A stretch of DNA of 64,000 bases from a virus (IMGVR_UViG_2593339225_000003:32001-96000); one strand, 5' to 3'; positions 19,342-63,553 are shown, counted from the stretch's first letter. Notes: generated by a model not told the origin, from the letters alone. Made by a program: numbers and translations.

Positions 19342-19344
19342 ATA

Positions 19345-19420
19345 TGGTAGCGGATGCCGGAGTTGAACCGTGCGCCACTCGATTGAAAGCCGAGTATCTT
19401 GACCGCTTGACTAATCCGCC
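19345..19420 (-). tRNA. tRNA-Glu(TTC)
   Basis: CTCGG-CT TTC AA-TCGAG, CCA end. Confidence 0.85.
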
Positions 19421-25779: not shown

Positions 25780-25830
25780 ATTGTAACACTTTACAAAAGT
25801 TTTGTCAATATGTTTTTTGCTATTTACATT
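25780..25830 (-). promoter_or_regulatory. sigmaA promoter of the RNAP operon with operator-like motif
   Basis: TTGACA-17-TACAAT on the minus strand, preceded by GTAAATAGCAAAAAACATA. Confidence 0.7.
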
Positions 25831-25907
25831 AATTTTTTTTATTTTTTTGTAGAAGCCACAGAGGGAAGTCTGCGAACTCCGCCGGATTTTTGCATTATAA
25901 AGTAAAT

Positions 25908-36126: not shown

Positions 36127-36585
36127 ATGGATATGTTGGATTCCATCGGCATTAAATATGGAAACATTATTGATTGCACTGTGAACACACGAGCACAAAA
36201 GCGTTGGGGTCAATGTAGAAAAGTTCCCGGCGGTTATACAATCAATATCAATGCTGTCCTTCTTGACGAGCAAAACAGCGAGGACGGTCTGATGAATACA
36301 ATCTTGCACGAGCTGGCGCATAGCGTAGACGGATGTATGAACCACGGCGCAAATTGGAAAGCTGTTGCAAGCCGCATTTATTCAGCCTATGGTTATGAAA
36401 TTAAAAGGACTGACAGCGCGGAGGATAAGGGAGTTATTGAATCCACAAGACAGATAGAATATAAGTATCAGTTCCGCTGTGAGAAATGCGGTAAAGTAAT
36501 CGGCAGGGCAAGAGCGAGTAGGTTTACGCGCAATCCCGAAAGGTTTATCCATACCGGCTGCGGCGGACATTTTCAAAAAATCTAA
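36127..36585 (+). CDS. SprT-like zinc metalloprotease
   Basis: RWGQC, HELAH, HGANWK and a C-terminal CxxC. The RBS-linked ATG at 36095 is out of frame, so a frameshift is possible. Confidence 0.8.
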   Translation: MDMLDSIGIKYGNIIDCTVNTRAQKRWGQCRKVPGGYTININAVLLDEQNSEDGLMNTILHELAHSVDGCMNHGANWKAVASRIYSAYGYEIKRTDSAEDKGVIESTRQIEYKYQFRCEKCGKVIGRARASRFTRNPERFIHTGCGGHFQKI

Positions 36586-36716
36586 AATAAATCTCACAAA
36601 ACATATTGACAAGTTATAAAACTTGTGGTAGAATAGGTAACAGTAAAGGGCGGACATCCGCTCATAAATAAATCGGGTAAAATAAATATCACAAAACATT
36701 TTAGGAGGTTATCGCT

Positions 36717-44844: not shown

Positions 44845-45804
44845 GTGATTATAATGTTGAACGCTAATACACTTACAATTACATCTCCATTTCTTTTCCC
44901 GAATCAGGAATTTTATATGGAAGCTCCGGCGGAACAGCCGAAACTCAAAAAGGACGGAACGCCCAAGCGCGTAAAGTGCAACAAGCAGCGCGGCAAAAAG
45001 TCTGAGGTTTATCCCATTCAGGTCAGCGACATCCGCAGATTTATGGATTGGTTTGCAGACCACGGCAAGTGGGAGTGCTACCTTGCTTTTGTCATCGGTA
45101 TCAATATGGCACGTCGCGCAGGTGATACGCTTGCACTGAGATGGGAGCATTTCTTTAATGCAAACGGTACATTCCGCGCGGATTTGCTTGAAATCGTAGA
45201 GGACAAGACAGATAAACTTGCTAACCCGCACATCAACTCGGCAGTAAGAAAAGCAATCAATCTGTATGTCGAGAAAACGGGCGTGAATCCTGCGGATAAC
45301 GGTTATCAGAACTACGTATTTGTTCAAACGAGCGGAAACTACAAAGGTAGAGTTATTTCTTATAATGCTTATCGCCTTTGCTTGAAGAAAGCTGCGGACG
45401 AACTCGGTGTTGAGTATAACGTCGGAACGCACAGTACACGAAAGACTTTCGGTATGGTTTCTCGTATGCTCCACGCGGGCGATTATGACTCGATGGAACT
45501 TCTGCAAACTATCTACAACCATTCCGACACAAAAACCACAAAGAGCTACATTGGATTAACCAAGAAGAAGGTTGACCAGTATTTCGACGATATGGGCGAG
45601 TTCTTTGATGATTATGTGACGGGTGAAAAGACATTCACAGAAGTCGCGGAAGCTCCTGTTGTGAGTATTGACGTAAACGACCTGCGAGATGTTATCAAGA
45701 TGGCTTATAAGGCTGGCGCGGATAATGCCGGAACGACAGACCCCGCCGTTCACCTTGAGGCTATGAATAATCTTCTCGCTATGATTGACGGATTGCAGAA
45801 ATGA
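44845..45804 (+). CDS. Tyrosine recombinase/integrase
   Basis: R (ARRAGD), K (EDKTDK), HSTRKTF, YNHS and Y (KSYIG) catalytic set present; own promoter at 44792-44820. Confidence 0.85.
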   Translation: MIIMLNANTLTITSPFLFPNQEFYMEAPAEQPKLKKDGTPKRVKCNKQRGKKSEVYPIQVSDIRRFMDWFADHGKWECYLAFVIGINMARRAGDTLALRWEHFFNANGTFRADLLEIVEDKTDKLANPHINSAVRKAINLYVEKTGVNPADNGYQNYVFVQTSGNYKGRVISYNAYRLCLKKAADELGVEYNVGTHSTRKTFGMVSRMLHAGDYDSMELLQTIYNHSDTKTTKSYIGLTKKKVDQYFDDMGEFFDDYVTGEKTFTEVAEAPVVSIDVNDLRDVIKMAYKAGADNAGTTDPAVHLEAMNNLLAMIDGLQK

Positions 45805-45816
45805 GGTATATTTTGT

Positions 45817-46642
45817 ATGTATAATAATTTTTTACTTGATGGCTGTATTTATAGCGAAAACGAAAAATACTCTTTGAATACTCCATTTAAGTGGAAGGAC
45901 GAAAGAATTAGCGTTGAGTTTGATTTAATTAGAGAGGGTAACAATGTTTCGTTAAAAGCGATAATCCCTGCGAATAAATACTCTGAATTTCAGTCTATGA
46001 AAGGCACTATTCGTTGTATTCAAAGGGTATCTGGGAAAGAATTTATTATCACATTTTTGCCGGAAGATATAATTCGCATTATCAGTGATGATTATGAGGT
46101 TGTCAATGTTGCATATCAAAGCAAATGTGAAAAATATCTTATGGATAGAGAAAAGAAATGGCTTGCAAAAGAGGAAGAAGAACGCAAGCAAAAAGAAGCA
46201 GAAGAAGCTGAGCGTATGAGTCATTTTTGGTATCGGTTATTCCATCGCAAAAGTGAGGTGAGATAATGAAAGCATCAATCGCTCTGATTGTCCTTGCACT
46301 TGTTTTAAGTGTGGCTGCAACTGTGTTGTGTTTATATGTTGGGATTGCAACAGACAGACCTTTCCAAATCGTTTTAGGCGGGTTAAACGCAACGCTTGTG
46401 CTGTTTAATACGGCAAATCTAATATCGGTTATACGGAGGAATAAATGACTGCAATCGCAGGAATCCCGAAAACGGAAACAATATGGGTGACATACACCTC
46501 TGAAAAAGGCGAGGTTTACCATATCACGGCGAAAACCAACAACAGAGATTATTACTACCTTTATAAAATAGTTGATGGCAAAGCACAGAAACTCGGACGA
46601 GCAAGAACACCTACGGAACTTGAAGAAAAATTTTTGAAATAA
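45817..46642 (+). other. Three small hypothetical genes (45817, 46266 membrane, 46445)
   Basis: Overlapping start/stop codons. Confidence 0.55.
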
Positions 46643-46817
46643 ATCTCACAAAACATATTGACAAAGTTGTTACCTTGTGTTACAATAGTGTTACAAGATA
46701 ACCCGACGGGTGGAAGGAGTGTTAATGCTTTTCAACTGACAACTGAATAATTCACATAGAGGCACTAAATCCAGCCTACGCGGGTTACATATTCTTACAC
46801 AAGGTAGGTGCGGATTT

Positions 46818-47198
46818 ATGTTAAAGATTAATGAAAAGATTCGCCCTCGATTTGGTGAAGTGTGGATGTGCCATCTCACAGACAAGGGCGGAAGCGTACA
46901 GAGTGGTTATAGACCTGTGTTCATTCTGTCTAACAATCAGAATAATACATATAGCTCCACGCTAAATGTTATTCCTATTACATCCAAGATGAATAAGAGG
47001 AAACTGCCAGTTCACGTTGAACTTTGGAATTACGCAATATTCGGATTAAAAACTCCAAGCACAATGATGGTCGAACAGACGACAACGGTTTCCATTGAAA
47101 GTCTTGAAAGAAAAATCGGAGCAATTAGCGACCACGCAATCTTGGCGAGCATCGGCAGGGCGATTATCGTTCAGTTCCCGATTTTCGCGGGTTGTTAA
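46818..47198 (+). CDS. mazF: MazF/PemK-family endoribonuclease-like protein
   Basis: FGEVW...GSVQSGYRPVFILSNNQNN...NVIPITS...MVEQ motif. Confidence 0.85.
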   Translation: MLKINEKIRPRFGEVWMCHLTDKGGSVQSGYRPVFILSNNQNNTYSSTLNVIPITSKMNKRKLPVHVELWNYAIFGLKTPSTMMVEQTTTVSIESLERKIGAISDHAILASIGRAIIVQFPIFAGC

Positions 47199-49109: not shown

Positions 49110-49391
49110 ATGTATGTACCAAAGCCTGTCGATACGGCAGATGTTACACTAAGTCCTGACATTGTTGAGTTGGGCGAGAAAATTACAGAGAGCGTCCACG
49201 ATGTATGGACGGAAGGTCGGGTTAAAGAGGGATGGACATATGGCGAAACGAGAAATGATGAACTAAAGCAACATCCTTGTCTTGTTCCATATGGAGATTT
49301 GTCCGATTCCGAAAAGGAATACGACCGCAATACCGCGATGGAAACACTCAAACTCATTATGAAGTTGGGCTACAAAATCGAAAAGGTATAA
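49110..49391 (+). CDS. Stand-alone RyR (ryanodine receptor repeat) domain protein
   Basis: YVPKPVD...HDVW...GWTYG..RND..KQHPCLVPY..L..SEKEYDR signature. Confidence 0.9.
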   Translation: MYVPKPVDTADVTLSPDIVELGEKITESVHDVWTEGRVKEGWTYGETRNDELKQHPCLVPYGDLSDSEKEYDRNTAMETLKLIMKLGYKIEKV

Positions 49392-49413
49392 TAATACATA
49401 AGGAGAACAGAGA

Positions 49414-49960
49414 ATGAAAAAAATTACTTGTTGTTGTAGATTTTCAGAATGACTTTATTGACGGTGCGCTCGGAACTTCCGAAGCTGTGGAAATCGTGCC
49501 AAACGTGGTAAACAAAATCAACGATTGGGATGGCGACATCGCTTTTACTGCCGACACTCACGGCGAAAATTACCTTGAAGCCAACGAGGGCAAGCATTTG
49601 CCGGTCGTACATTGCGTACAGAATACGGACGGTTGGGAACTTCGCGCGGAGGTTGCAAAGGCTGTCAAAGAAAAGATGGATGCAAAGGTATTTCAGGGCG
49701 TTTCATTCCTAAAAGATACTTTCGGTTCGCTTGACCTTATGAACTACATTAGCGCAATCGGTTATGAGTATGTTGAGTTTATCGGACTATGCACGGACAT
49801 TTGCGTTGCAAGTAACGCGATTATGGCGAAGGCTTTTCTGCTCGAAGCCCAGATTGTCGTTGACCCGTCTTGCTGCGCGGGCGTAACTCCCGAAACCCAC
49901 GATGCGGCACTTACCACAATGAAGATGCGTCAGATTGATATTTTGGAGGTAGCAAAATGA
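49414..49960 (+). pseudogene. pncA: Nicotinamidase (isochorismatase family), frameshifted
   Basis: Removing one A from the A7 after the ATG restores MKKLLVVVDFQNDFIDGALG; DTH, HC and GLCTDICV motifs downstream. Confidence 0.85.
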
Positions 49961-50540
49961 TTAGGATTAAGGGCGACGAAATCACTTTGTCGAGATTTCC
50001 CGACGGAACTCTGCGCCTGATACCAAATCTTCCCAATATTTCGTTAGAAGAATCATCATAAGCGTATGCTCTCATTGCTTGGAACTACGAGAGCGATGAG
50101 GAAATGGCGGCAATCCTATTCTTGACTAAGCACCTTAAAAATCTTGGATATAATGTCAGTTTGGATATGCCGTATATCCCAAATGCTCGGCAGGATAGAG
50201 TAAAAGGAGAAAATGACGTATTCACACTCAAATATTTCGCGGAGTTCATCAACTCTCTTGATTTCGATAGAGTATTTGTGTTAGACCCTCGTTCTAATGT
50301 TAGCGCGGCACTGATTGATAAAATCATCGTAGAATCTCCCGAATATTATTGTGATAAGGCAATACAGAAAATATATTATGAAATTGAGTTTAGTCCGCTG
50401 ATGGCTTTTTATCCCGATGAGGGCGCAACGAAACGATACTCCGAGAGCTACGGCTTGGAATGTGCATACGCCGCGAAAAATCGCGACTAGCAGACTGGCA
50501 AAATCCTCGGATTATCGGTTTCTCATATGCTGTTCTGAAT
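49957..50540 (+). pseudogene. prs: Ribose-phosphate pyrophosphokinase-like pseudogene
   Basis: RFPDG, MPYIPNARQDR and YPDEGA motifs; in-frame TAA at 50059, TAG at 50488 in KNRD*QTGKILGL; C-terminus missing. Confidence 0.8.
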
Positions 50541-50683
50541 AAGTATATCCGCACAGGAGTATGTGCAGACAGTATTATAAGAGAGCGAATTGTCGCTATG
50601 CACGAAAAGAATATATTTAAGCTGTTACCAATGCCGACATTTCCTTATAATGGGAAAATAACGGTTTATGTGGAGTAATTAAT

Positions 50684-51337
50684 ATGAAATTTCTTAACAG
50701 AATTTTAAAAAAAGAGGTATATAATATGAAATTTAATGTAATCAACAATTCGTCCAACGTCAATGTTGAGGTTAAAGATAATTTGGACGGTTCTGTTGCA
50801 ATTATCGTAGATGTTAAGCCAAATGGCAAACCGCTTTCAGAGTATAAGCCTGGTGAAACCGCAACTATTGGCGAACGTGAATACATCGTCCTCGGTCACG
50901 CAAACGAAACAACTGCGCTTGTTACAAAGGATATTGCGAAAACAATGGAGTTTGGTACTTCCGGCGACTATCGCAAGAGTTATGTGCGTGATTATTGCAA
51001 CGGCGAATTTTATAGGGGACTTGTAAAAGCTGTGGGAGCAGACAATATCATTCCCCATACGGTCAATCTTATGTGTGATGATGGTTCAAATAAGGGCATT
51101 GTATGTAAGGATAATGTATCAATTCTTACTATGGCTAATTATCGCCGCTATCGTGAGCAGCTTCCCGCGATTGGCAAGACGTTCTGGACAGCAACAGACG
51201 TAACTGTTCTCGATAAGGATTACGCTCGCAGCGTTTGCTGCGTCCGTTCCAGCGGTGTTCCGAGCTGGTGTGGCTGTGGCTGGACTTGCGGTGTGCGCCC
51301 GTTTTGTATCTTGAAATCTTCTGTCTTGGTATCTTGA
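50684..51337 (+). CDS. DGR target protein (C-type-lectin-fold-like C-terminus)
   Basis: Ends in the VR with a GVRP motif; probable start at 50726. Confidence 0.85.
   Translation: MKFLNRILKKEVYNMKFNVINNSSNVNVEVKDNLDGSVAIIVDVKPNGKPLSEYKPGETATIGEREYIVLGHANETTALVTKDIAKTMEFGTSGDYRKSYVRDYCNGEFYRGLVKAVGADNIIPHTVNLMCDDGSNKGIVCKDNVSILTMANYRRYREQLPAIGKTFWTATDVTVLDKDYARSVCCVRSSGVPSWCGCGWTCGVRPFCILKSSVLVS
51224..51303 (+). repeat. DGR variable repeat (VR)
   Basis: 80 bp; 10 mismatches to the TR, all at TR adenines. Confidence 0.95.
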
Positions 51338-51353
51338 CATCTTGAACTCTTAA

Positions 51354-51716
51354 ATGGACGAATCACAATTTGAGATAGGAAATAAGGCGGAAAAGTTGTA
51401 TTTTGCGGTGTTTGATGCTACAACCAACCGCCATCATTATCCTGTTAGATTTCGCAGGTTGTCGGACAAGTTGCAAGAATACGCTCTTGATATATATAGT
51501 AATTTAATTGATGCTAATTCATTCAAGGCGGATACTCTGCAACACCGAACAACAAAATATGATTTACAAACTAAAGCAATTACGACTTGTAACAAATTTT
51601 TAAGTTTAACAAGATATAGTTTGCACGCAAAACTAATAAGTTTTGCAATAAGCGAGGAATGGACACGATTAGCACACGATGTTAAATTTATGTCGCTCGC
51701 TTGGAGAAAAACATAA
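51354..51716 (+). CDS. avd: DGR accessory variability determinant (four-helix bundle)
   Basis: 120-aa helical protein between target and TR, ending LAWRK. Confidence 0.8.
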   Translation: MDESQFEIGNKAEKLYFAVFDATTNRHHYPVRFRRLSDKLQEYALDIYSNLIDANSFKADTLQHRTTKYDLQTKAITTCNKFLSLTRYSLHAKLISFAISEEWTRLAHDVKFMSLAWRKT

Positions 51717-51743
51717 ATTAATACATATAGGTTATGCGCTGTT

Positions 51744-51823
51744 GCTCGCAACGTTTGCTACGTCAATTCCAACGGTGTTCCGAACTGGAATGACTGTGGC
51801 TGGACTTACGGTGTGCGCCCGTT
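51744..51823 (+). repeat. DGR template repeat (TR)
   Basis: Non-coding AAC/AAT-rich copy of the VR, 520 bp downstream of it. Confidence 0.95.
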
Positions 51824-51940
51824 CTGGTGGATTAGTGAGGACTATAAATCGCAACAACAGCGATTACAAGGAGTACGCCACATCATCAAAAGAGCGCATA
51901 ACCTTTCTCACGGAGGTTGGGATAAATACAAAAGATTATT

Positions 51941-53362
51941 ATGGATGATTTTCAAACACTTACTGATTTTGGGAATCTCTATAATTCTTACCTTGTTTCG
52001 TTAAAAGGCAAAGGTAAGATAAAGAGTGCGGCGAGATTTAATATTATGGCACTCGAAAACCTTTATGTAATGAAGCAACGTCTTTTAAACCATACATATC
52101 GAATTTCGCCGTATTCAGAGTTTGTAGTTAAAGAACCAAAAGAAAGAATTATAAAATCTGGTTCATTTCGCGATAAGGTATTACAACATTGTTTATGCGA
52201 TTATGTGTTGATACCAAAACTTAATAATGAATTTATACTTGATAATTATGCCGGACAGATTGGCAAAGGTACTTTGTTTGGTTTGGATAGATTATCGAAG
52301 CATCTATTAGATTTCTATTCCGAACGCGGTTGTAATGGTTATATTTTAAAATGTGATATAACTAAATTCTTTTATTCAATTAACCATAATGTAATGAAGA
52401 AATTGATTAAAGAATTATTTACTGATGAGGATATTCAATGGATTTGTAATTCATTTATTGACAGTGTGGATGGTGATGGTCTACCTCTCGGAAATCAAAG
52501 TAGTCAAGTTTTCGCACTTATATATCTTAACGGTCTTGACCATTACATAACCAAGGAATTAGGTTGCAAGTATTATGGTCGATATATGGACGATTTTTAT
52601 TTACTTTCTGATGATAGAGAATATCTCAAAGAATGTTTGGCTAAAATTAAAAAATATTTGGCTAATCTCAAATTAACATTGAATAACAAAACCGAGATTG
52701 TTTCAATGAGTAAGGGAATACGATTTCTCGGATTTCATACATATCTTACCGAGGAGGGCAAGATTATCCGCAAACTTAACAGTGATAACAAAAGACATAT
52801 TAAAAAGCGTTTGAGAAAATATGCAAAGTTAGTTTTTGATGGCAGAATGGAGAGAAAACGCTTTAATGAGATATATCAATCGTGGCGAAATCACGCTTCT
52901 CACGGTAATTGTTTTAAACTGATTTATGAAATGGATTTATTTATGGATGAATTAATGAATGAGCAGAAAACAGAATTAAGAATAATTATTGCCGGAAGTA
53001 GAGATTTCAATGATTACGAATTTCTAAAGAAACAACTGTCTAAATTTATCAAAGACCACCAGAATAGGAGATTTACTATTGTTAGTGGTGCAGCCCGTGG
53101 AGCAGACCAACTCGGAGAGAAATACGCAAGAGAGAAATGTATTCAATTAAAGCGTTTTCCTGCGGACTGGAATAACCTTGGACGGAGTGCAGGATATATT
53201 CGCAATACTCAAATGCTGGATTATATCAAGCAAAATGATTGTGAGGGATATGTATTGGCATTTTGGGATGGTCAGAGCAAGGGAACACGGCATATGATTA
53301 AAACCGCCAAAAAAGCGGGAGTGACCGTTGAAATAAAATTTTTCAAAAAAAAATTAATGTAA
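51941..53362 (+). CDS. DGR reverse transcriptase fused to a C-terminal SLOG (DUF2493/YspA-like) domain
   Basis: RT motifs FRDKVLQH, KCDITKFF, GLPLGNQSSQ and YGRYMDDF; C-terminal IIIAGSRDF...VSGAARGADQLG...AGYIRN...AFWDGQSKGT. Confidence 0.9.
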   Translation: MDDFQTLTDFGNLYNSYLVSLKGKGKIKSAARFNIMALENLYVMKQRLLNHTYRISPYSEFVVKEPKERIIKSGSFRDKVLQHCLCDYVLIPKLNNEFILDNYAGQIGKGTLFGLDRLSKHLLDFYSERGCNGYILKCDITKFFYSINHNVMKKLIKELFTDEDIQWICNSFIDSVDGDGLPLGNQSSQVFALIYLNGLDHYITKELGCKYYGRYMDDFYLLSDDREYLKECLAKIKKYLANLKLTLNNKTEIVSMSKGIRFLGFHTYLTEEGKIIRKLNSDNKRHIKKRLRKYAKLVFDGRMERKRFNEIYQSWRNHASHGNCFKLIYEMDLFMDELMNEQKTELRIIIAGSRDFNDYEFLKKQLSKFIKDHQNRRFTIVSGAARGADQLGEKYAREKCIQLKRFPADWNNLGRSAGYIRNTQMLDYIKQNDCEGYVLAFWDGQSKGTRHMIKTAKKAGVTVEIKFFKKKLM

Positions 53363-53377
53363 ATAGCAAAAAACATA

Positions 53378-53406
53378 TTGACAAAATTTTAGAGTTGTGG
53401 TATAAT
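53378..53406 (+). promoter_or_regulatory. sigmaA promoter of the RNA island
   Basis: TTGACA-17-TATAAT with TG extension, flanked by the operator-like motif. Confidence 0.8.
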
Positions 53407-53576
53407 TCTAAATGTAGTCAAGAGAAGCCGATGTGGGTCGGCAATTCTTAAAATCTTTAATGTAAATAGCACAAAAAATATAAATCGAGTAGTGAGTATA
53501 GAGCCATATGAAGTGCGCCGCGACGTACAACCGTTAGCTGAATCCGTACAAATTCGCTATCGGGCGGCAGAGATTA

Positions 53577-53795: not shown

Positions 53796-53869
53796 TGGGC
53801 TATGGTGTAGCGGTAACACAGCGGACTTTGACTCTGCCATCTCTGGTTCAAATCCAGATAGCCCAGCCA
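53796..53869 (+). tRNA. tRNA-Gln(TTG)
   Basis: GCGGA-CT TTG AC-TCTGC, CCA end. Confidence 0.9.
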
Positions 53870-54220
53870 GAGGTCGAACTGCCTTTAGCCAAAAGAGTTT
53901 GTTTTCATACTTTTGTTTATCGGAAGTAAGGTTTGCGCGTTTTACTTAATAAGAGCGTGGAGTACGGTTTCAATTTAAGCCGAGGGAAGTTTATTCATTC
54001 TGACCTATGGAAAGCGAATGGGTAAGGCAGGATTCGTGCCTTGTATATCGGAGATTACAAGTAATCATATTCCGGGTTGGCTGCGAGATATTGATTACAC
54101 AGATTAGGATGACAACCTACTTTCAACCGCAAAAGATAACAATAGTCAATAAATTTAATGGCTCGCGGCTCGCAAAGAGCGACCACATATTATGACTTTG
54201 GCGGAAGTCGCGGGTTATAT

Positions 54221-54316
54221 GGCGCGGTAATCCTAATTGGTAAGGAGTTGTCCTGCTAAGACAATAGTAGCCGGGTTTATCTCGGTGTGTGAGTTCAAGT
54301 CTCACCCGCGCCGCCA
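54221..54316 (+). tRNA. tRNA-Ser(GCT)
   Basis: TTGTC-CT GCT AA-GACAA, long variable arm, CCA end. Confidence 0.9.
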
Positions 54317-54484
54317 ATGGTTCTCGTTGACCCAGAATAACGAGCGATGCCCAATGAGAAGCGGGCGTGAAGTCTGTCAGTCAGACAATGCTGAGATAGC
54401 GGCTGCGTGTTAAAATGCTTGGATTTTGCGGTTTTTCGCAGAGGATTTCGCGTGAAGAAATGGAGTAAGAAAAACCGTATATAT

Positions 54485-54884
54485 GGGGCTGAAATAGATT
54501 CGACAGGGCGCAGAAAACATATAACTTCGCAGGAATGTAACATCCTTAAAGTACATCTTAAAAATAAACGACACTACTGTTGTTACGCTTCATCCCGCGC
54601 TTTTAGCAGTTCTCGGTCAGAGAGCCGTAGCGTGAGATTCCGATAAGCACCTGCTATTCGGTCTAACTTATCGGACGGAAATAGAATAGCAAACAACGGT
54701 TTCTTGCCTCCGTAAAAGGTAAGTGTTGGAGTGGGTGTAATTCCTTACATCTCCATTCGTTTCCCGCGAATTAAAACAATGTTGTGGTTTGCAGATTGCC
54801 ACGGAGCAAAATCGGCTATTGCGTGAAAAGAGTTAGTGTGGGTATGTGTTTTGGACACGGGTTCGATTCCCGTCAGTTCCACCA
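54485..54884 (+). ncRNA. ssrA: tmRNA
   Basis: 5' GGGGCTGAAATAGATTCGAC, 3' GACACGGGTTCGATTCCCGTCAGTTCCACCA, G3-U pair, internal tag ORF 54570-54635. Confidence 0.92.
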
Positions 54885-54890
54885 GTTATA

Positions 54891-55328
54891 GGGTTAGGCA
54901 ATTTGTTAGTGTGCTTTCCTAATTTGGCATATTACTGTAATGCCAAAGGGAAATGAGGGTTTTGCCAATGCCGGATAGAAAGAGGTTGATTCCGGCTATG
55001 TTTCTAAAGGATGCGGTGCGGAATAGCAGGACTGATATAAGTGATGGAGAAGAAATTCAGAGAAGTTGCTATATGTCGAGGATAAGTAGTCCATCCTGTT
55101 CCTTTTGAAACGAGAATCGACTAAGGGCATCAGGGACTCCCCCGATTGCACGTATTTCGTGCATTACGAAGGCAATAAAGTTAGTAATAACGTGAGCAAC
55201 TATGGTGAGGGAAGGGAGTCGCTGGACAGTGGGAAAGTCCAGGTTTTGAAGAAAGATGAACCAAATCCACATCTATAAAAAGGATTGGTGGTAGTGGAAT
55301 CTTTGTATTCACCCGATGAACCTAACTC
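54891..55328 (+). ncRNA. Candidate large structured ncRNA
   Basis: No plus-strand ORF in the track; closing stem GGGTTAGG/CCTAACTC; several hairpins and crossing long-range pairings. Confidence 0.45.
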
Positions 55329-55401
55329 ACATCGTTAAAAAGAGTTGGTGGTGGGTGTGTTGTTTTTACGACTCCGGACAGCCCGGAAAGACGGGCAATT
55401 T

Positions 55402-55476
55402 GCAGATATGATGTAGCTGGTAGCATATCAGCCTTCCAAGCTGAATGGGCGAGTTCAAATCTCGTTATCTGCTCCA
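55402..55476 (+). tRNA. tRNA-Gly(TCC)
   Basis: TCAGC-CT TCC AA-GCTGA, CCA end. Confidence 0.9.
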
Positions 55477-55653
55477 ATGCTGATTGAGCTGGTGAAAGAC
55501 CTCCCCAACTATAAGGGGTGAACTGTTCGGCTCGTATAATTAGCAGCATAGTTGGTAGCACTACGGTCAAGAAGCTATCCGCGATTGGTGGTTGACGTAG
55601 GGATTTGACAACCAATAACCATCTGACACCTCGGAAAGACGAGGCATATATGT

Positions 55654-55729
55654 GGCGGGTTAGTCAAGAGGTTAAGATACGCGGCTTTCAATCGCGTGAC
55701 GCTGGGTTCAATTCCCGCACCCGCTACCA
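55654..55729 (+). tRNA. tRNA-Glu(TTC)
   Basis: CGCGG-CT TTC AA-TCGCG, CCA end. Confidence 0.85.
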
Positions 55730-55818
55730 TAAGTTCATTTTGAACTTCTTCTCATTAGATAGTTTATTCTTGGATTCGGAATAAATTCATCTTGGCGGCT
55801 CGGAAAGACGAGCAACCT

Positions 55819-55892
55819 GCGGATATGATGTAATGGTAGCATATCAGATTCCCAATCTGATTGTGAGGGTTCAAATCCCTTTATTCGCTCCA
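55819..55892 (+). tRNA. tRNA-Gly(CCC)
   Basis: TCAGA-TT CCC AA-TCTGA, CCA end. Confidence 0.9.
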
Positions 55893-55910
55893 TATAGGTT
55901 GGTGCTGAAA

Positions 55911-56273
55911 ATGATTGAAATAATAATTACATTTGTTGTTCCTATATTACTGAATTTAATAATCATTATTAGTGCAATAATCCAAAATGAAAAAGAGAAA
56001 CAATGTCACGAACACTTACTTCATAGTATTCCACATACTCCTGTTATGGATAAAACTGTGAATGGCGATAGCGATATAAATGAGTTGTTAGAAACTTGTC
56101 TCAAATTGGGTTGTAACGGATTTACTATGAATGAAATGAGAGAGATGCTTAATATAGAGAAAGTTACAAATGATAATATTAGCAAGCCAAAACATTATCC
56201 AACAAATTGTGTGAACTGTGGCGCAGTATTACACGGAAATCAATGCGAATATTGCGGAACGGAATACAATTAA
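55911..56273 (+). CDS. Membrane-anchored protein with C-terminal Zn ribbon
   Basis: Hydrophobic N-terminus and CVNCGA...CEYCG; start moved to 55911 to avoid the tRNA. Confidence 0.6.
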   Translation: MIEIIITFVVPILLNLIIIISAIIQNEKEKQCHEHLLHSIPHTPVMDKTVNGDSDINELLETCLKLGCNGFTMNEMREMLNIEKVTNDNISKPKHYPTNCVNCGAVLHGNQCEYCGTEYN

Positions 56274-56277
56274 ATAT

Positions 56278-56352
56278 GTGGTTGTTGGTGTAACGGTAGC
56301 ACGGTAGCTTGTGACGCTATTAGCGTAGGTTCGACCCCTACACTTCCACCCA
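56278..56352 (+). tRNA. tRNA-His(GTG)
   Basis: GTAGC-TT GTG AC-GCTAT, C discriminator and CCA; acceptor stem has mismatches. Confidence 0.75.
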
Positions 56353-56354
56353 TA

Positions 56355-56429
56355 TGGCGAGATAGTTTAATGGGTAAAGAACACCACCGGAAGGGTGGAG
56401 GCGCAAGTTCGACACTTGCCTCGCCAACA
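56355..56429 (+). tRNA. Atypical tRNA-like gene (5-nt anticodon loop GGAAG)
   Basis: Acceptor TGGCGAG/CTCGCCA, T-arm GCAAG-TTCGACA-CTTGC, ends ACA. Confidence 0.5.
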
Positions 56430-56522
56430 TAAAATTTGTGTGGTGCGTTGCCGAAAAATCGGAGGAAAGCACGATGACCGCGTGGAAAGTCGCGTTGACA
56501 CTTTGGAAAGACAAAGGTATAC

Positions 56523-56597
56523 GCCGATGTAGCTCAGTCAGGTAGAGCAGCGGACGGATAATCCGCGGTGTCGGTGGTTCGATTCCACCCATCGGTT
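56523..56597 (+). tRNA. tRNA-Ile(GAT), G at position 33, no encoded CCA
   Basis: GCGGA-CG GAT AA-TCCGC; canonical D and T arms. Confidence 0.75.
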
Positions 56598-56735
56598 GGG
56601 CTTTAGAAGGTCATACGCCCAACTCACAAGACCTCTCACAGTGATTCGCGACATTGTGGATGCGAAACAAGTGTAATACAACTTGGTTGAGTGCCAAAAA
56701 GTGTTGGGCACCTCGGAAAGACGAGGAGTATACTT

Positions 56736-56811
56736 GTGCGTATAGCAAAATTGGTAATGCACTTGACTTTTAATCAAGAGATTGTCAGTTCGAGCCTGAC
56801 TACGCACACCA
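56736..56811 (+). tRNA. tRNA-Lys(TTT)
   Basis: CTTGA-CT TTT AA-TCAAG, CCA end. Confidence 0.9.
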
Positions 56812-60034: not shown

Positions 60035-60120
60035 GCGGATATGGCGGAATAGGTAGACGCGCGTGATTTAGGTTCACGTGTCCCTGTGGCGTGTGGGTTC
60101 AAGTCCCTCTATCCGCACCA
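60035..60120 (+). tRNA. tRNA-Leu(TAG)
   Basis: CGTGA-TT TAG GT-TCACG, variable arm, CCA end. Confidence 0.9.
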
Positions 60121-60137
60121 AAATTAAGGAGAACCAT

Positions 60138-60428
60138 ATGAAAAAGATTTTGAGCATTATGTTCACGGTAATTGCAATAACTGGTATAATTTTCACTTTC
60201 GCAAGAGCCACAGCGATTGTCGAAAGAGGAAGTCAAGCATTTGGCGGCGAAATGCTCATTCTTTTAATTCCTGTTATCGCGTGGATTGTTTATTGCAATG
60301 TTAATACTACAAAGCAGGAGTTTAAGGATTACAAGTTGACAGATGAAGCCGAGGGCGCGGGTTATATTGCAAATCCTGATTTCGGTGGGTCAATTCAAAT
60401 CACAGACATTAACGAAATTTCGATATGA
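60138..60428 (+). CDS. Small membrane protein
   Basis: AAGGAG RBS; two hydrophobic helices around ERGSQAFGGE. Confidence 0.65.
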   Translation: MKKILSIMFTVIAITGIIFTFARATAIVERGSQAFGGEMLILLIPVIAWIVYCNVNTTKQEFKDYKLTDEAEGAGYIANPDFGGSIQITDINEISI

Positions 60429-60489
60429 TAATCACCTCCTTTAAAGGCAAAGCGGAAAGACGTTTGACAGCCGGATAGACGGCAAAAAT

Positions 60490-60576
60490 GCGGGTGTGGT
60501 GGAATTGGTAGACACATCGGGTTTAAGCCCCGATGGGCGTTTGCCCGTGCAAGTTCGAGTCTTGTCACCCGCACCA
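60490..60576 (+). tRNA. tRNA-Leu(TAA)
   Basis: TCGGG-TT TAA GC-CCCGA, CCA end. Confidence 0.9.
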
Positions 60577-60579
60577 TAT

Positions 60580-60656
60580 GCTCCGATAGCTCAATAGGTT
60601 AGAGCGTTCGCCTTATAAGCGATTGACGATTGGTTCAATCCCATCTCGGAGTACCA
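60580..60656 (+). tRNA. tRNA-Ile(TAT)
   Basis: TTCGC-CT TAT AA-GCGAT, CCA end. Confidence 0.8.
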
Positions 60657-60692
60657 CAAACATAGTCAAAATCATTTAAGGAGAAGTTTGCG

Positions 60693-62159
60693 TTGAGTAC
60701 AGATAAGAAATACTATAAAATTTCACAATATACAATGAAATGCCGACTTTATCCGAATAAAACGGTTGCTAAAGGTTTTGATAAGGCAATTCAAGCTATT
60801 CATTGTTATCATAATTGCCTTTTATACGATATTTTTAATGGAAACATTGAATCTACTGCAAAGCCATATAAGCCAAAAAAGGAATCAAAGCCTGAGAAAA
60901 AGAAAAATGAAAGCGATTTTGATTATCGGCAACGTCTTTACTCTTATGAACAAAAGCAAAAGTACAAAGAGGGCGATATAATTCATTTCCCGAATTTGAA
61001 TTACGCATTTTCCGCAGAGTATAAGAACAAGTTAATCGAAGAACATCCCGTAATCGCTAATGCTCCGGCTTCTGCAATCACAGCAAAGATTGGTCTTATG
61101 TCCGATGTTAAGAAATCGCTCGGCAAACTTCCAATCGAATTTCAGAAACCAAAGTATTATAGCAAGAAAAAGCCAAGACAGAGTTTTTCTTATCAAGATG
61201 TATTAGGTAAATTAGTTGAAACCGATAATAAAAATGTATTGTTTATTAAACTGCCAGAGAAATTTGGCGGCACACGCTCAAATCCTGCAAAGTGTAAAAT
61301 TCGCGGTTGGAATAAAAAAATTCGTTTTGATAGATACGGGGAAATAAATTTTATAGATTATTTCAAATCCAATCCAAACAAAAGGATTACTATTAAAATC
61401 GAAAAGGATAATTGTGGTGATTATTGGATTGTTTTTTCACTGACCAATGTTTATAAGTCAATGGCAAATCCACAAAATACATTTGGTGGTATTGATGTTG
61501 GAATAAAAGATATTGCTATTCTTTCTGATAATACAAAATTTGAAAATCGAAAATTTAAGGATGAAGAAAAACAGCATATTAAATTTTTGAATAGGCGATT
61601 GAGCAGAAGGCAAGGTTGGTCTAACGAAGAATTTAGAGATGGCTATAAGCAGAACAAAGATATGATTGTATCAAAAACATATCAGAGAACACAGCTTAAA
61701 CTTTCTAAATTACACAGAAAAATCGCTCGTAAGAGGGAGAACTATAATCATAATATAACCACAAAGATTATAAATACATATTCGTTCATTGGTATTGAAA
61801 CTCTGAATGTAACTGGTATGTTTAGAAACAGACATTTATCAAATGCTTTGTCGGATGCCGCTATGGGAGAAATTTTGTCAATGCTTAAATATAAAGCAGA
61901 ATGGTATGACAGAATCATTCAACCCATCAGTCAATGGTCGCCATCAAGTAAACGGTGTAGTTGCTGCGGATATATTAGACCAAAGTTGGGCTTACATATC
62001 AGAGAGTGGCAATGTCCAAAATGCGGAACGTTTCACGATAGAGATGTAAATGCCGCAATAAATATTCTTTACTATGCTTTGTTAATTTATTACGGCGAAG
62101 AAAAAGGCAAAGAAATTTTTGAAAAATTGAATAATAATTTTCAATTATTATGTGCATAG
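60693..62159 (+). CDS. CRISPR-associated TnpB/Cas12f-like RuvC nuclease (488 aa)
   Basis: RuvC-I GGIDVGIK, RuvC-II IGIETL, Zn finger CSCCG/CPKCG and RuvC-III HDRDVNAAINI; adjacent anti-repeat and array. Confidence 0.85.
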   Translation: MSTDKKYYKISQYTMKCRLYPNKTVAKGFDKAIQAIHCYHNCLLYDIFNGNIESTAKPYKPKKESKPEKKKNESDFDYRQRLYSYEQKQKYKEGDIIHFPNLNYAFSAEYKNKLIEEHPVIANAPASAITAKIGLMSDVKKSLGKLPIEFQKPKYYSKKKPRQSFSYQDVLGKLVETDNKNVLFIKLPEKFGGTRSNPAKCKIRGWNKKIRFDRYGEINFIDYFKSNPNKRITIKIEKDNCGDYWIVFSLTNVYKSMANPQNTFGGIDVGIKDIAILSDNTKFENRKFKDEEKQHIKFLNRRLSRRQGWSNEEFRDGYKQNKDMIVSKTYQRTQLKLSKLHRKIARKRENYNHNITTKIINTYSFIGIETLNVTGMFRNRHLSNALSDAAMGEILSMLKYKAEWYDRIIQPISQWSPSSKRCSCCGYIRPKLGLHIREWQCPKCGTFHDRDVNAAINILYYALLIYYGEEKGKEIFEKLNNNFQLLCA

Positions 62160-62340
62160 CACTGATAATAAAAGGGTTGCAGGCACAACGCCGCCCTGTG
62201 CGAGCCACAAGTAACCATAAATTATGTGGGAGGTTCGCACCAAGTAGGCATAAGAAATCGGTAGTATATGCTGTAAAATCGGCAATACAAAGTAGATATT
62301 GCTTATGCAATCACTATATATGCGCGAATTGAAATATCAA
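62160..62340 (+). ncRNA. Candidate tracrRNA
   Basis: 62307-62335 (GCAATCACTATATATGCGCGAATTGAAAT) can base-pair along most of the CRISPR repeat. Confidence 0.65.
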
Positions 62341-62355
62341 ACACAATATGTTGCG

Positions 62356-62806
62356 GTTATAACTCACGGGTATATATGAATTGTGAGGCTTAACCGCGAA
62401 GAACTATTCCAACTCAAATGGTTATAACTCACGGATATATGAATTGTGAGTCAAAAGGCTATCAAGTATTTACTCAAACGTCTTGTTATAACTCACGGGT
62501 ATATATGAATTGTGAGCTTTCTTGACACCAATAATTTTGTCGGTTATAAGTTATAACTCACGTGTATATACGAATTGTGAGCACAAATGGCAATCGTGAT
62601 AATGCTGTTTCAAGGGTTATAACTCACGCATATGTATGAATTGTGAACCCATTCTACTGTATATATGAATTGTGAGTAAGAAAGTCAGAGCAACTGCAAG
62701 CAAGGTTTGGTTGTAACTTGCGTATATGTGTGAATTGTGAACTTTCAGAAAATCCTATTACGATAGGTTGACAAACTGCAACTCACGTGTGTATATGAAT
62801 TGTGAG
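62356..62806 (+). CRISPR. CRISPR array, 32-bp repeat GTTATAACTCACGGGTATATATGAATTGTGAG, 8 repeats (one partial)
   Basis: Repeats at 62356, 62421 (30 bp), 62485, 62550, 62616, 62658 (partial), 62710 and 62775; six unique 33-34 bp spacers plus one 10-bp remnant; repeats degenerate distally. Confidence 0.92.
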
Positions 62807-62906
62807 TACCGATACGTTAAATCAAGATATCACAAATAGCAGGACATTGAATAGTGTTTAGGCATTGAGTAGGAATTATCCCGTTGGAGCGGTATTGATG
62901 ACATTT

Positions 62907-62991
62907 GCGAGCGTGACGGAACGGGTAGACGTTGCAGATTCAAAATCTGTTGCCGAAAGGCGTGTGGGTTCGAGTCCCACCGCTCGTACCA
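62907..62991 (+). tRNA. tRNA-Leu(CAA)
   Basis: GCAGA-TT CAA AA-TCTGT, CCA end. Confidence 0.9.
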
Positions 62992-63148
62992 GCCGTTGTT
63001 GTTCGTTGTTCGCAGCGGCGGCGTTGTTGTTGTTGGCAGAGAACGCGGAAAACTCTGTACAAAAAATATCCGACAAAGGGCAGGGAGCAGAGCCTATGGC
63101 GCGGTGATAACTCTATTCCGCGCACTACAAAAGAAAAGGGCGATTTTT

Positions 63149-63418
63149 ATGACCACTTACGAAACAAGGCGAGAATCCAACAAGAAAGTTGACCGGCAAA
63201 AGCGATACAATCAAATCCTGCACATTCTAAAAGGTCGCACGATGACCGCGAAGGAAGTAGCAGTTGAGATGAACAGGCGCGGATTAACGCCGACATCGGA
63301 ACGAAATTTTGCGGCTCCGCGATTAACAGAGCTTGTGAATGATGGCTTGGTTGAAGTAGTTGGTAAAACTGTTTGCGAATATACTTCCAAGAAAGTGGCT
63401 CAGTATAGATTAATTTAG
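63149..63418 (+). CDS. Small winged-HTH protein
   Basis: MTAKEVA...RNFAAPRLTELV..GLVEVVG motif. Confidence 0.65.
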   Translation: MTTYETRRESNKKVDRQKRYNQILHILKGRTMTAKEVAVEMNRRGLTPTSERNFAAPRLTELVNDGLVEVVGKTVCEYTSKKVAQYRLI

Positions 63419-63475
63419 TCCTTTATTATTCATTCATATGAGTTTCGGACGTTCTCACCAAAAACGTCTACACAT

Positions 63476-63553
63476 ACGGGCATAACTCAGTTTGATTAGA
63501 GTACCTGCTTTGGGAGCAGGGGGTCGCAGGTTTGAGTCCTGTCGCCCGTACCA
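63476..63553 (+). tRNA. tRNA-Pro(TGG), degenerate
   Basis: CCTGC-TT TGG GA-GCAGG and CCA; D-loop lacks GG, T-loop reads TTTGAGT. Confidence 0.7.

Follow-up and report, generated by a model that had tools for sequence, protein, structure and literature searches.

A phage DGR with its reverse transcriptase fused in frame to a YAcAr-type SLOG domain

The window, i.e. the whole stretch of 64,000 nt of viral DNA that was analysed (IMGVR_UViG_2593339225_000003:32001-96000), contains a complete DGR at positions 50684-53362. It consists of a target gene that carries the VR at its C-terminal end, followed by avd, a TR and a reverse transcriptase (RT), and the ORF of the RT continues into a SLOG domain. 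The phage carrying this cassette has at least 207 kb and stems from ruminant gut. The features are listed below.

49487-50678, plus strand: remnant of an NAD-salvage cluster directly upstream of the DGR, with a nicotinamidase/isochorismatase, prs in truncated form and the final ~55 nadE codons (Pfam Isochorismatase; PHROG 619; comparison with L091)
50684-51337, plus strand: DGR target gene, 217 aa (ORF; PHROG 9958 match, E 2.2e-25)
51224-51306, plus strand: VR, 83 nt, in frame with the target gene and encoding the C-terminal end of the target
from ~51289, plus strand: putative IMH, the final ~18 nt of the VR, GC-rich
51354-51716, plus strand: avd accessory gene, 120 aa (PHROG 3206 'Avd protein of DGR', E 1.2e-11)
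51744-51826, plus strand: TR with the IMH* at its 3' end, the sole other copy of the repeat in the genome
51941-53362, plus strand: RT-SLOG ORF, 473 aa, without internal stop
51941-52954, plus strand: RT domain, residues 1-338, with fingers, palm (YMDD) and thumb (Pfam RVT_1; PDB profile match; Foldseek)
52955-52969, plus strand: linker, residues 339-343, ...NEQKT (junction alignment; AF2 model)
52970-53341, plus strand: YAcAr/DUF2493 SLOG domain, residues 344-467 (Pfam PF10686; AF2; ORF end at 53362)

All parts of the DGR are thus present in the order given by the original prediction, and the 473-aa RT ORF runs into the SLOG domain without a stop, as had also been proposed. The target protein gives a sub-threshold Pfam match to DUF6273 (21.6 bits, cut-off 23.5) and no match to PDB sequences at E up to 1. 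Its stop codon is located 31 nt past the VR's end, and homologous targets are present in the relatives L001, L002 and L011. The avd product has no match in Pfam; the gene is kept in L001 and L002. In the fusion protein, Pfam detects RVT_1 at residues 68-266 (E 7.5e-18, 65.4 bits, cut-off 29.6) and YAcAr (PF10686) at residues 347-411 (E 4e-16, 59 bits, cut-off 28.2). The genome holds one TR, one VR and one YAcAr domain, the latter being the fused one.

The DGR of Bordetella phage BPP-1 (mtd-avd-TR-brt; PDB entry 8ub7) has the same order of parts, i.e. a target gene with a 3' VR, avd, TR and RT, and likewise shows adenine-specific TR-to-VR differences ending at a GC-rich IMH. A PDB profile search with the window RT retrieved the Bordetella DGR RT (8ub7_A, E 2.8e-43; query residues 5-332 against residues 10-320 of the 328 in the chain), which is again the top match in Foldseek (E 9.8e-17). 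The two proteins align over the whole length of bRT with ~25% identity, and the YxDD active site is intact, with R214-Y-M-D-D218 invariant in 36 aligned fused sequences. However, bRT stops at the thumb (328 aa) whereas the window RT is longer by ~135 residues, which make up the SLOG domain. The targets differ as well: that of BPP-1 is Mtd, the one in the window is a small 217-aa protein that is not Mtd.

According to the accessible part of a DGR survey (Wu et al. 2018, PMC5758913), ~20% of DGR RTs extend up to ~150 aa past the thumb, and some accessory proteins (HRDC, MutS-like) are optional, occur in particular DGR lineages only and presumably act on nucleic acids. The sole motif named there for the extensions is MutS_I, matched weakly by three RTs; that part of the survey mentions neither SLOG nor YAcAr or DUF2493. 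The SLOG tail is one such accessory. The pairing of a DGR RT with a SLOG/YAcAr domain was not found in the literature searched, with Burroughs et al. 2015 and the supplement of Wu et al. 2018 outside that scope. Members of the clade may be listed, unnamed, in the tables of that supplement.

VR and TR show 11 mismatches over 83 nt. Ten of these are located at TR adenines, and 10 of the 14 TR adenines are altered. The ten adenine mismatches match the original count, but the predicted total of ten was one short. The eleventh mismatch (position 51304, C in the TR and T in the VR) is part of the GC-rich 3' end, recurs at the same position in two relatives (L001 and L003) and fits a difference between IMH and IMH*. 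In the fused relatives, 9 of 10 (L001) and 13 of 14 (L003) mismatches are at TR adenines, and unfused relatives also show adenine mutagenesis. Past mutagenic retrohoming, as originally proposed, is supported by these data.

The diversity of the VR was also followed between samples, using contigs of four gut-metagenome runs from four studies that are ~98% identical to the window. Among the differences listed, which are part of a fuller table, 25 of 27 outside the VR are common to all four runs, compared with 0 of 13 inside the VR. Eleven of these 13 listed positions are at TR adenines of the window and one is at a site where the TR of those strains has an A. The DGR is active: VR sites vary between samples and the flanks do not. 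Because the VR differs among the four runs while the flanks are constant, adenine mutagenesis is ongoing and not only a past event.

The original prediction had considered that the fusion might be an assembly artefact or that relatives might have a stop at the junction, and had suggested a search for the RT-DUF2493 architecture in other genomes. The junction is bridged in frame and without indels by contigs of 4/4 independent gut-metagenome runs. In three studies, single contigs of 15.5-18.6 kb span positions 50600-53383, with no indel listed for 51941-53352, and in the fourth run the junction is crossed by a 763-nt contig. An assembly artefact is thereby ruled out. A stop codon at the junction is absent from all 36 aligned fused proteins. 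The PF00078 + PF10686 architecture is present in 35 protein clusters among the 120 homologues listed (60-94% identity), with PF10686 precomputed on all 35, and additionally in two phage contigs from IMG/VR (81 and 156 kb) and one Clostridia MAG. The chance that the architecture results from faulty assembly, from an error in sequencing the RT stop or from a recent fusion confined to this genome is therefore negligible, and no evidence in favour of these options was found.

From the alignments and trees, the fusion is old and inherited, not an event of the window genome. The groups of the RT tree are repeated in the SLOG tree, i.e. the two domains co-diverge. In AU tests, a single clade was rejected neither for all fused SLOGs (p-AU 0.625, constrained tree better by 15 lnL) nor for all fused RTs (p-AU 0.09). 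A second, independent fusion was considered for P0026, P0029, P0031, P0033 and P0035, the SLOGs of which lie outside the main clade in a quick tree, but one clade is not rejected by the AU test. In both the RT and the SLOG part dN is far below dS; dS is saturated (>2 or not computable) in five of six comparisons and 1.5 in the sixth, and the values support just this statement. The length of the linker is identical in 33 of 36 family members. In the AF2 model, the junction consists of a helix (residues 325-338) that is followed by a strand (344-352). The full-length model reaches a pTM of only 0.56 and does not establish how the SLOG domain is placed on the RT. The ESM Atlas contributed RT-only clusters with scores of 0.83, which are no more than a lead.

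Based on its Pfam match, the SLOG domain belongs to the YAcAr (PF10686/DUF2493) family, which was reportedly defined by Burroughs et al. 2015 (NAR). The AF2 model of the domain (pLDDT 92.9) has the Rossmann-like three-layer fold of YpsA, DprA, LOG, MCP and the SLOG domains of TRPM/ThsA, and its 14 best matches in an exhaustive VIA search (Z from 12.2 to 8.7) are without exception such proteins. According to the model, the fold is closest to YpsA (Z = 12.2), DprA (11.8, 10.7 and 10.2 for three structures) and ShosA (11.3); LOG enzymes (9.7 and 8.8), TRPM2 (9.0) and ThsA (8.8) were also matched. YpsA from B. subtilis (PDB entry 2nx2), the relative on which the YAcAr family was founded, aligns with an rmsd of 2.6 over 119 residues at 13% sequence identity. 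YpsA stands alone, is related to cell division and has no connection with reverse transcription, whereas the window SLOG is fused to an RT. YpsA is not known to bind DNA. A Foldseek search of the PDB with the SLOG model gave weak and mixed matches (CARF, methylglyoxal synthase and DprA; best E 1.9e-4), and an HMM profile of the domain found nothing meaningful among PDB sequences (best E 0.12).

The loops of the family are present, i.e. G-x-R following strand 1, S-G-x-A-R-G-x-D, R-N and W-D-G-x-S-x-G-T. One and the same set of invariant columns was obtained with 36 fused and with 48 mostly free sequences; in this comparison, no residue is invariant solely in the fused forms. Two ssDNA-binding motifs of DprA, 'G-S/T/A-R' and 'F/L/Y-x-x-R-N/D', and the catalytic signature of LOG enzymes are given in the accessible part of PMC3950713. 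The first motif corresponds to G352-S353-R354, with the Gly and the Arg invariant in both the 36 fused and the 48 free sequences. hhalign places G-S-R on G-T-R and SGAARGAD on SGGALGID of the host DprA (weak, E 0.032). The putative counterpart of the second motif is Y419-I-R421-N422, i.e. Y-x-R-N, which is one residue short; its R-N is invariant and located at the start of the long helix. The Pfam match to DprA (PF02481) has 22.5 bits, below the cut-off of 29.6, and comprises only residues 345-396, i.e. the first two strands. Hence, assignment of the domain to DprA/Smf itself was rejected.

Nevertheless, the domain shares with DprA/Smf and the DprA-like antitoxin ShosA the Rossmann-like SLOG fold, the G-S-R after strand 1, the SGxARGxD loop and the invariant R-N dyad at the long helix. 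In contrast to DprA, it has only ~130 aa and no SAM or winged-helix domains. ShosA binds ssDNA and RecA, as stated in the accessible part of PMC12961424. Owing to the VIA Z-scores, the invariant G-S-R, the hhalign result, the weak Pfam match to DprA and the ssDNA and RecA binding of ShosA, the SLOG domain is probably DprA-like, and it would be a module for binding single-stranded nucleic acids and not a LOG-type hydrolase.

A LOG-like activity has nevertheless to be weighed. As an N-glycosidase or by other nucleotide processing, the domain might act on the template, the cDNA or the nucleotide pool and aid adenine-specific mutagenesis. The structural relation to LOG enzymes (Z = 9.7 and 8.8) and one YAcAr homologue that is fused to a uracil-DNA glycosylase are in line with such an activity. 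However, the LOG signature P-G-G-x-G-T-x-x-E (motif from the accessible part of PMC3950713) is absent. The domain reads F-W-D-G-Q-S-K-G-T-R-H-M at this position (W-D-G-x-S-x-G-T-R-H-M), with no P-G-G and no Glu after G-T. In the Bordetella system, adenine mutagenesis is a property of RT-Avd itself, and the unfused relatives described above show it as well. An enzymatic role of the domain is thus highly improbable.

Published views of YAcAr, as far as the accessible text of PMC7824862 goes, favour NAD/ADP-ribose ligands, and YAcAr is predicted there and in the available part of bioRxiv 10.1101/2022.01.24.477630 to use or sense NAD-derived ligands. The SLOG domain might accordingly sense NAD, ADP-ribose, a cADPR-like compound or a nucleotide signal and switch cDNA synthesis, in which case diversification would be coupled to the condition of the infected cell. 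ThsA and TRPM2, SLOGs that bind ADPR-type ligands, were retrieved in the structural search (Z = 8.8 and 9.0), fusions of YAcAr to Macro, NADAR or DUF4326 are frequent, and the cassette adjoins the NAD-salvage cluster. Yet these ligand-sensing SLOGs rank under the YpsA/DprA/ShosA group. A 2.4-kb deletion has degraded the NAD cluster in the window, the prs of which matches PHROG 619 over profile positions 57-183 of 282 only, while the fusion is intact. Unfused DGRs, which are unregulated in this sense, are still active and need no SLOG, and the SLOG domain survives loss of the DGR. Furthermore, the neighbourhood is accounted for by history since the SLOG gene already sat there. A link to NAD clusters as a general trait of YAcAr was considered and rejected: no NAD genes were seen in eight distant free-SLOG loci, which makes the link a matter of local history. 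Gating of the RT by a ligand, which corresponds to the nucleotide-sensing regulator of the original prediction, is therefore unlikely.

The SLOG domain is an optional add-on to the DGR, as close unfused DGRs, with RTs 70-75% identical, have none. No SLOG was seen at 79 of the 80 genome loci that carry a related RT (flanks of up to 5 kb per side, shorter at contig ends), and the whole of the complete 164-kb phage G002, the DGR of which is unfused, lacks it as well. In P0037, the SLOG has been lost. The reverse situation is found in L091, a DGR-less relative from a metagenome scan; a search of IMG/VR with the free SLOG P0154 gave 44-45% relatives only. The gene order in L091 is pncA, prs, NAMPT, nadE and SLOG, with full prs, NAMPT and nadE. 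Its SLOG stands alone, starts 2 nt past the nadE stop and was left by an in-frame deletion. At least two in-frame deletions have dropped the RT but kept the SLOG expressed: the reading frame of the SLOG begins with codons 1 and 2 of the target gene in P0154 and L091, and with Avd residues 1-17 in P0152. The free SLOGs P0153, P0154 and P0156 have diverged from one another with all motifs retained. P0157, P0158 and P0160 begin at Met residues within the RT tail; they may be broken RTs, internal starts or contig-edge calls. As the invariant residues persist in the free protein after loss of the DGR, the SLOG has a job that is independent of the RT.

Probably, the fusion came from read-through into a SLOG gene that ended the NAD-salvage cluster of the phage. 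Comparison with L091 places the cassette between the end of nadE and the SLOG coding sequence, and 17 of 36 family members have a Met immediately before the first SLOG strand, the start site of a separate SLOG gene. The RT gene would have lost its stop once, reading into the SLOG gene just downstream. The fusion would then have been passed on vertically, with occasional loss of the SLOG where the DGR was retained and, elsewhere, loss of the DGR by in-frame deletion with the SLOG retained. An accidental fusion beside the NAD cluster had been one of two options in the original prediction. Its location is supported by the L091 comparison and the Met residues, but the event is not recent: it is old and inherited, being shared by 35 clusters with co-diverging domains.

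This history leaves the question of whether the tail serves the DGR. It may be a self-sufficient SLOG of an adjacent NAD/ADP-ribose or DNA-repair counter-defence module that was caught by the loss of a stop, the halves of the protein working separately with no role of the SLOG in retrohoming. The position of the SLOG directly after nadE in L091 and the NAD genes upstream of the L003 and L011 cassettes (NAPRT/NAMPT, NADAR-NadE) agree with this, as do the repeated in-frame loss of the RT, the conserved motifs of the diverged free SLOGs, the working DGRs of sister lineages without SLOG, the loss in P0037 and the lack of fusion-specific invariant residues. On the other hand, the fusion has outlasted enough divergence to saturate dS, and a short linker of constant length in 33 of 36 members is more than one would expect if two indifferent halves were simply strung together. 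In L001, moreover, the SLOG travels with the cassette in a different neighbourhood, with a radical SAM gene upstream and no NAD genes within the 6 kb examined. That YAcAr is repeatedly joined to the C terminus of other enzymes acting on nucleic acids, as in the accessible part of bioRxiv 10.1101/671271, also argues that tethering is useful. A fusion of mere convenience is quite possible, only slightly less so than our preferred reading, of which it is the main rival.

Our preferred reading, with a probability of roughly 40%, is that the SLOG domain is a tethered ssDNA/cDNA-binding module of the RT. To our knowledge, it is still not understood how the cDNA of DGRs replaces the VR. Reverse transcription of the TR RNA introduces adenine-specific errors, and the resulting copy is put in place of the VR at the 3' end of the target gene. 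The tethered SLOG would hold or protect the nascent single-stranded cDNA, or pass it to recombination or replication proteins. It would thereby raise the yield of retrohoming as an optional enhancer and not as a core part. Counted against this proposal were the SLOG-free sister DGRs, the free SLOGs after DGR loss, the lack of fusion-specific invariants, the shortened second motif, the sub-threshold Pfam match to DprA, the low pTM of the full-length model, the top rank of YpsA, which is no known DNA binder, the published NAD/ADP-ribose views and the fusions to Macro, NADAR, DUF4326 and DUF488. A more specific version, in which the SLOG is a built-in recombination mediator that picks up the single-stranded cDNA during its synthesis and passes it on to RecA, or to the replication fork at the VR, is rather unlikely. 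If it is true, this clade would expose the cDNA-integration step of mutagenic retrohoming, phages would be able to upgrade their DGRs by bolting on a DNA-handling domain, and YAcAr would be a portable ssDNA-clamp for helicases, exonucleases, glycosylases and RTs of phages.

The chief natural hints at the step from cDNA to VR replacement come from optional accessory parts. Here, a clade of active phage DGRs has its RT permanently tied to a domain of probable DprA-like nature, and natural controls exist both ways: some sister DGRs lack the domain, and some sister phages have kept it but lost the DGR. These contrasts offer a clean way to ask if ssDNA handling limits retrohoming. If the fusion is neutral, it is still a well-documented read-through fusion of adjacent genes that has been stable over long divergence.

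In either case, a very common and uncharacterised phage domain gains a concrete, assayable partner. Free YAcAr homologues are numerous (5247 scored, 73-235 aa, E up to 0.001). Homologues are fused to 5'-3' exonuclease, DEAD/ResIII helicase and UDG, and the same domain is also found fused to Macro, NADAR, DUF4326 and DUF488. Two published fusions were found in the accessible parts of their sources: HelB of phage ICP1, an SF1B helicase with a C-terminal DUF2493 (bioRxiv 10.1101/671271), and a DciA-YAcAr protein of Streptomyces (bioRxiv 10.1101/2022.01.24.477630). These belong to the same Pfam family and the domain is usually attached C-terminally to an enzyme of single-stranded nucleic acids, whereas the partner in the window is a DGR RT. 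The recurrent pairing with DNA enzymes was counted in favour of the ssDNA/cDNA-binding module. In a further locus (L008), YAcAr is located between RecJ and an SF1 helicase.

The DGR occupies positions 50684-53362, and its four parts follow the canonical order of target, avd, TR and RT on the + strand. It was predicted to be complete, and the target gene with its variable repeat (VR), avd, the template repeat (TR) and the RT are all located in this region:

50684-51337, + strand: target gene, an ORF of 217 aa
51224-51306, + strand: VR, 83 nt, inside the target gene
51354-51716, + strand: avd, 120 aa, matching PHROG 3206 ("Avd protein of DGR", E 1.2e-11)
51744-51826, + strand: TR, found as a repeat match to the VR
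51941-53362, + strand: RT-SLOG ORF, 473 aa

TR and VR are each present in one copy in the genome and differ at 11 of 83 positions. Ten mismatches fall on TR adenines, as originally predicted, but the predicted total of ten is one too low. Altogether, 10 of the 14 TR adenines are altered. The eleventh mismatch, with C in the TR and T in the VR at 51304, belongs to the GC-rich 3' end and recurs at the equivalent place in L001 and L003, two loci of relatives with a fused RT-SLOG DGR. Judged from the sequence, it is read as a putative difference between IMH (3' end of VR) and IMH* (3' end of TR), a feature of DGRs described by Wu et al. (2018, PMC5758913).

The predicted in-frame fusion is confirmed by the single ORF, which contains both RVT_1 (residues 68-266, E 7.5e-18) and YAcAr/PF10686 (residues 347-411, E 4e-16) above the curated Pfam cut-offs. 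A DprA match is also present, below threshold. The DGR RT of Bordetella phage (8ub7_A) is the top match of the family profile (E 2.8e-43) as well as the top fold match. Profile positions 5-332 align to residues 10-320 of this 328-residue chain; thus, a whole RT is present by about residue 335, and the remainder is extra. The model of the full-length protein has a pTM of only 0.56. Full-text searches for DGRs with SLOG, DUF2493 or DprA, and for YAcAr, DUF2493 and PF10686, revealed no description of an RT fusion, and one public record names a family member only "DUF2493 domain-containing protein". The paper that defined the YAcAr family, which was outside this search, is reportedly that of Burroughs et al. 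2015. Unexplained C-terminal extensions occur in about 20% of DGR RTs, according to Wu et al. (2018, PMC5758913).

The RT-SLOG fusion is real. Sampled words of the cassette are found in at least 20 public runs, with half or more of the words in 16 of 20. The labelled runs, which come from 14 studies, are gut metagenomes of bovine, sheep or unspecified origin; the source itself may be one of the runs. Contigs from four runs of four studies were compared over 50600-53500. Single contigs of 18.6, 15.5 and 17.8 kb span 50600-53383 with 50-55 substitutions, and a 763-nt contig of the fourth run crosses the junction. The indels listed for these contigs are an additional A at 50706 (one run), an additional A at 51706 at the end of avd (all four runs), a loss of 2 nt at 53353 in the last codons (one run) and an additional C at 53435, 3' of the ORF (one run); none lies between 51941 and 53352. 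With the junction bridged in all four runs, an assembly artefact, considered in the original prediction, is not borne out, and its probability is negligible. The extra A at 51706 belongs to an A-run and results in a longer, changed Avd end, as in the loci L001 and L002 (122 aa). The 120-aa Avd of the window could reflect either strain variation or an error in the homopolymer.

The same contigs also show the DGR to be active. Outside the VR, 25 of the 27 substitutions listed are common to all four runs and are strain differences from the window. Within the VR at least 13 listed positions vary, none of the 13 being common to all four runs, and 11 of them correspond to TR adenines of the window. 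Of the other two, 51287 corresponds to an adenine in the TR of those strains (T>A at 51807 in each of the four runs), and 51272 varies at a non-adenine. The diversity seen is between rather than within samples, since contigs hide rare variants and the counts refer to the differences listed.

The fusion is old and inherited. Its search in other genomes revealed RVT_1 together with PF10686 in 35 clusters (440-490 aa, 60-94% identity) among the best 120 homologues listed; the other 85 contain the RT only (290-412 aa, 62-78% identity over the RT part). The IMG/VR contigs L001 and L003 (81 and 156 kb) and a Clostridia MAG (L011) also have fused cassettes; their gene order is unchanged, and their TR and VR again differ in an adenine-specific manner. 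In the RT-domain tree (121 rows), a single clade with good support unites 29 of 36 fused rows and also includes three apparently non-fused rows (two truncated ORFs and the protein cluster P0037). The remaining seven make up two smaller groups. The subgroups recur in the SLOG-domain tree (186 rows). A single clade is not rejected by AU tests, either for all fused SLOGs (p 0.625, with 12 nested short forms included) or for all fused RTs (p 0.09). These tests are weakened by group definitions that were made only once the trees were known. For the SLOGs, the constrained tree gains 15 lnL units over the unconstrained quick search. The junction has equal length in 33 of 36 fused sequences, and in 17 of 36 a Met directly precedes the first SLOG strand (...K-M-E-L-R-I-I-I-A-G-S-R...). 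This residue is putatively a relic of the start codon that the SLOG had when it was a gene of its own. Mean pairwise identity is 74% for the RT and 53% for the SLOG. As judged by dN (0.14-0.18 and 0.26-0.38, respectively) against dS, which is saturated in most comparisons, both domains are under purifying selection, with the SLOG more loosely constrained. In P0037 (43 contigs) the reading frame departs from the SLOG past "...EKRI", and the protein finishes with some 50 unrelated residues. A 45%-identical RT at L082:972-2195 follows the query as far as residue 412; no SLOG was detected at that locus.

Neither DGR nor SLOG needs the other, and the two halves of the protein are separable. In G002, a complete phage of 164 kb, the RT is unfused (71% identity to that of the window), the VR shows adenine-specific changes and no YAcAr domain occurs anywhere. 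No SLOG ORF is found near related RTs in 79 of 80 genome loci, with flanks of up to 5 kb examined. The free SLOG lineage has diverged with every invariant residue kept. The invariant columns are identical in 36 fused and 48 mostly free domains; there is no sign of a new function specific to the fusion.

The DGR-less metagenome relative L091 encodes nicotinamidase, ribose-phosphate pyrophosphokinase (283 aa, full), NAMPT (491 aa) and NAD synthase (261 aa), followed by a free SLOG (129 aa; 99% identity to cluster P0154, 79% to the domain of the window) and an SPFH protein. By BLASTN, its positions 313-1447 correspond to 49380-50514 of the window, 3827-4006 to 50509-50689 (nadE end, spacer and ATGAAA) and 4012-4542 to 52978-53507, the last block beginning at ...RIIIAGS of the SLOG. 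Exactly 50690-52977 is missing in frame, i.e. all but the first two codons of the target, avd, TR and the RT to about residue 345. As P0153, P0154 and P0156, which are free SLOGs, sit far inside the fused clade, beside the window, the best reading of L091 is that its DGR was lost secondarily by deletion, not that it is an empty site. P0152, in which Avd residues 1-17 are joined to the RT tail and SLOG (95% identity to the window), and P0155, a free SLOG retaining the linker "...NEQ.PE", look like further deletions sparing the SLOG. The NAD-salvage cluster of the window, for its part, is broken at 50104-50678. Relative to L091 it lacks about 2.4 kb, comprising the C-terminal ~100 codons of prs, the whole NAMPT gene and the initial ~205 nadE codons; of prs a 128-aa fragment is left, and of nadE the last ~55 codons, in a different frame. 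The SLOG may be an independent domain that merely lies in the reading frame of the RT; with separable halves on one side and an inherited fusion of mostly constant junction length on the other, this is quite conceivable at somewhat less than even odds.

The SLOG domain is modelled with high confidence (pLDDT 92.9). In an exhaustive search of structures, YpsA (Z 12.2), pneumococcal DprA (11.8), ShosA (11.3), TM1055 (10.8) and a further pair of DprAs (10.7 and 10.2) rank above LOG (9.7); MCP, TRPM2 and ThsA SLOG (8.8) also rank below the DprA group. The two ssDNA-binding signatures of DprA are G-S/T/A-R and F/L/Y-x-x-R-N/D (Wang et al., PMC3950713). The first is matched by the invariant G352-S-R354, which hhalign places, weakly, on the G-T-R of the host's own DprA; the second is matched only as Y419-x-R421-N422. 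ShosA is described in PMC12961424 as binding ssDNA through equivalent arginines and also RecA. We favor, with a probability of about 40%, a DprA-like ssDNA binder which, attached to the thumb, would help the cDNA to survive or to reach its target.

Homologues of the domain (37-53% identity) are fused to 5'-3' exonuclease, DEAD/ResIII helicase and UDG, and a free copy lies between RecJ and an SF1 helicase in locus L008. Fusions of YAcAr-type domains to the SF1B helicase HelB of ICP1 (bioRxiv 10.1101/671271) and to a few DciA proteins (bioRxiv 10.1101/2022.01.24.477630) have been published. The LOG signature P-G-G-x-G-T-x-x-E is absent from the domain sequence, and an enzyme feeding mutagenesis is very improbable. 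Homologues in the same identity range are also fused to Macro, NADAR, DUF4326 and DUF488, and opinion in PMC7824862 leans towards NAD/ADP-ribose as YAcAr ligand. A ligand sensor gating the RT would suit such a ligand; beside the DprA-like ranking and motif it is unlikely. Both themes would be reconcilable if the domain recognizes single-stranded or ADP-ribosylated DNA. In the phages of L003 and L011, a NADAR-NAD synthase fusion (L003:1330-2511, L011:2429-3634) lies beside NAPRT/NAMPT directly upstream of the DGR and ties an ADP-ribose-processing domain to NAD synthesis.

The window is part of the 207,456-bp contig C75 of a 2.5-Mb assembly. It encodes portal, large terminase, head protease, sliding clamp and homing endonucleases, and phage genes are present at both contig ends, among them a clamp loader, an NAD-dependent ligase and methyltransferases. 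By these genes, C75 is the genome of a phage of jumbo size; a terminal repeat was not detected. The regions 44845-47198 and 49110-49391, just upstream of the NAD genes, contain a tyrosine-integrase-like ORF (PHROG 216), a MazF-like ORF (PHROG 1936) and the gene of a small protein with an RyR domain (Pfam E 1.2e-34). A second, unrelated RT (32-33% identity, 445-aa open frame) lies outside the window at G000:C75:99174-100076 on the - strand. An A/T-rich repeat of ~34-45 nt follows the RT-SLOG stop codon in direct copies (53342-53378 and 53445-53481). Metagenome contigs break or branch at 53342-53481, where summed depth rises about 5-fold. The matching L091 segment also matches 25796-25840 (96%) and 36575-36634 of the window. 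Probably this is a dispersed regulatory repeat of the phage (promoter or terminator). The translation kit of the window is unusually rich for a phage, with 18 tRNA genes in three groups (53796-56811, 60035-63553 and 18058-19420), none of the 18 with a suppressor anticodon, and a tmRNA-like gene at 54485-54884. Outside the window, a 392-aa ORF (G000:C75:11919-13094) contains an RF-1-type release-factor domain (PHROG 20323, 3122). Along with the tRNA arrays, this is a hint that the phage may manipulate translation in its host.
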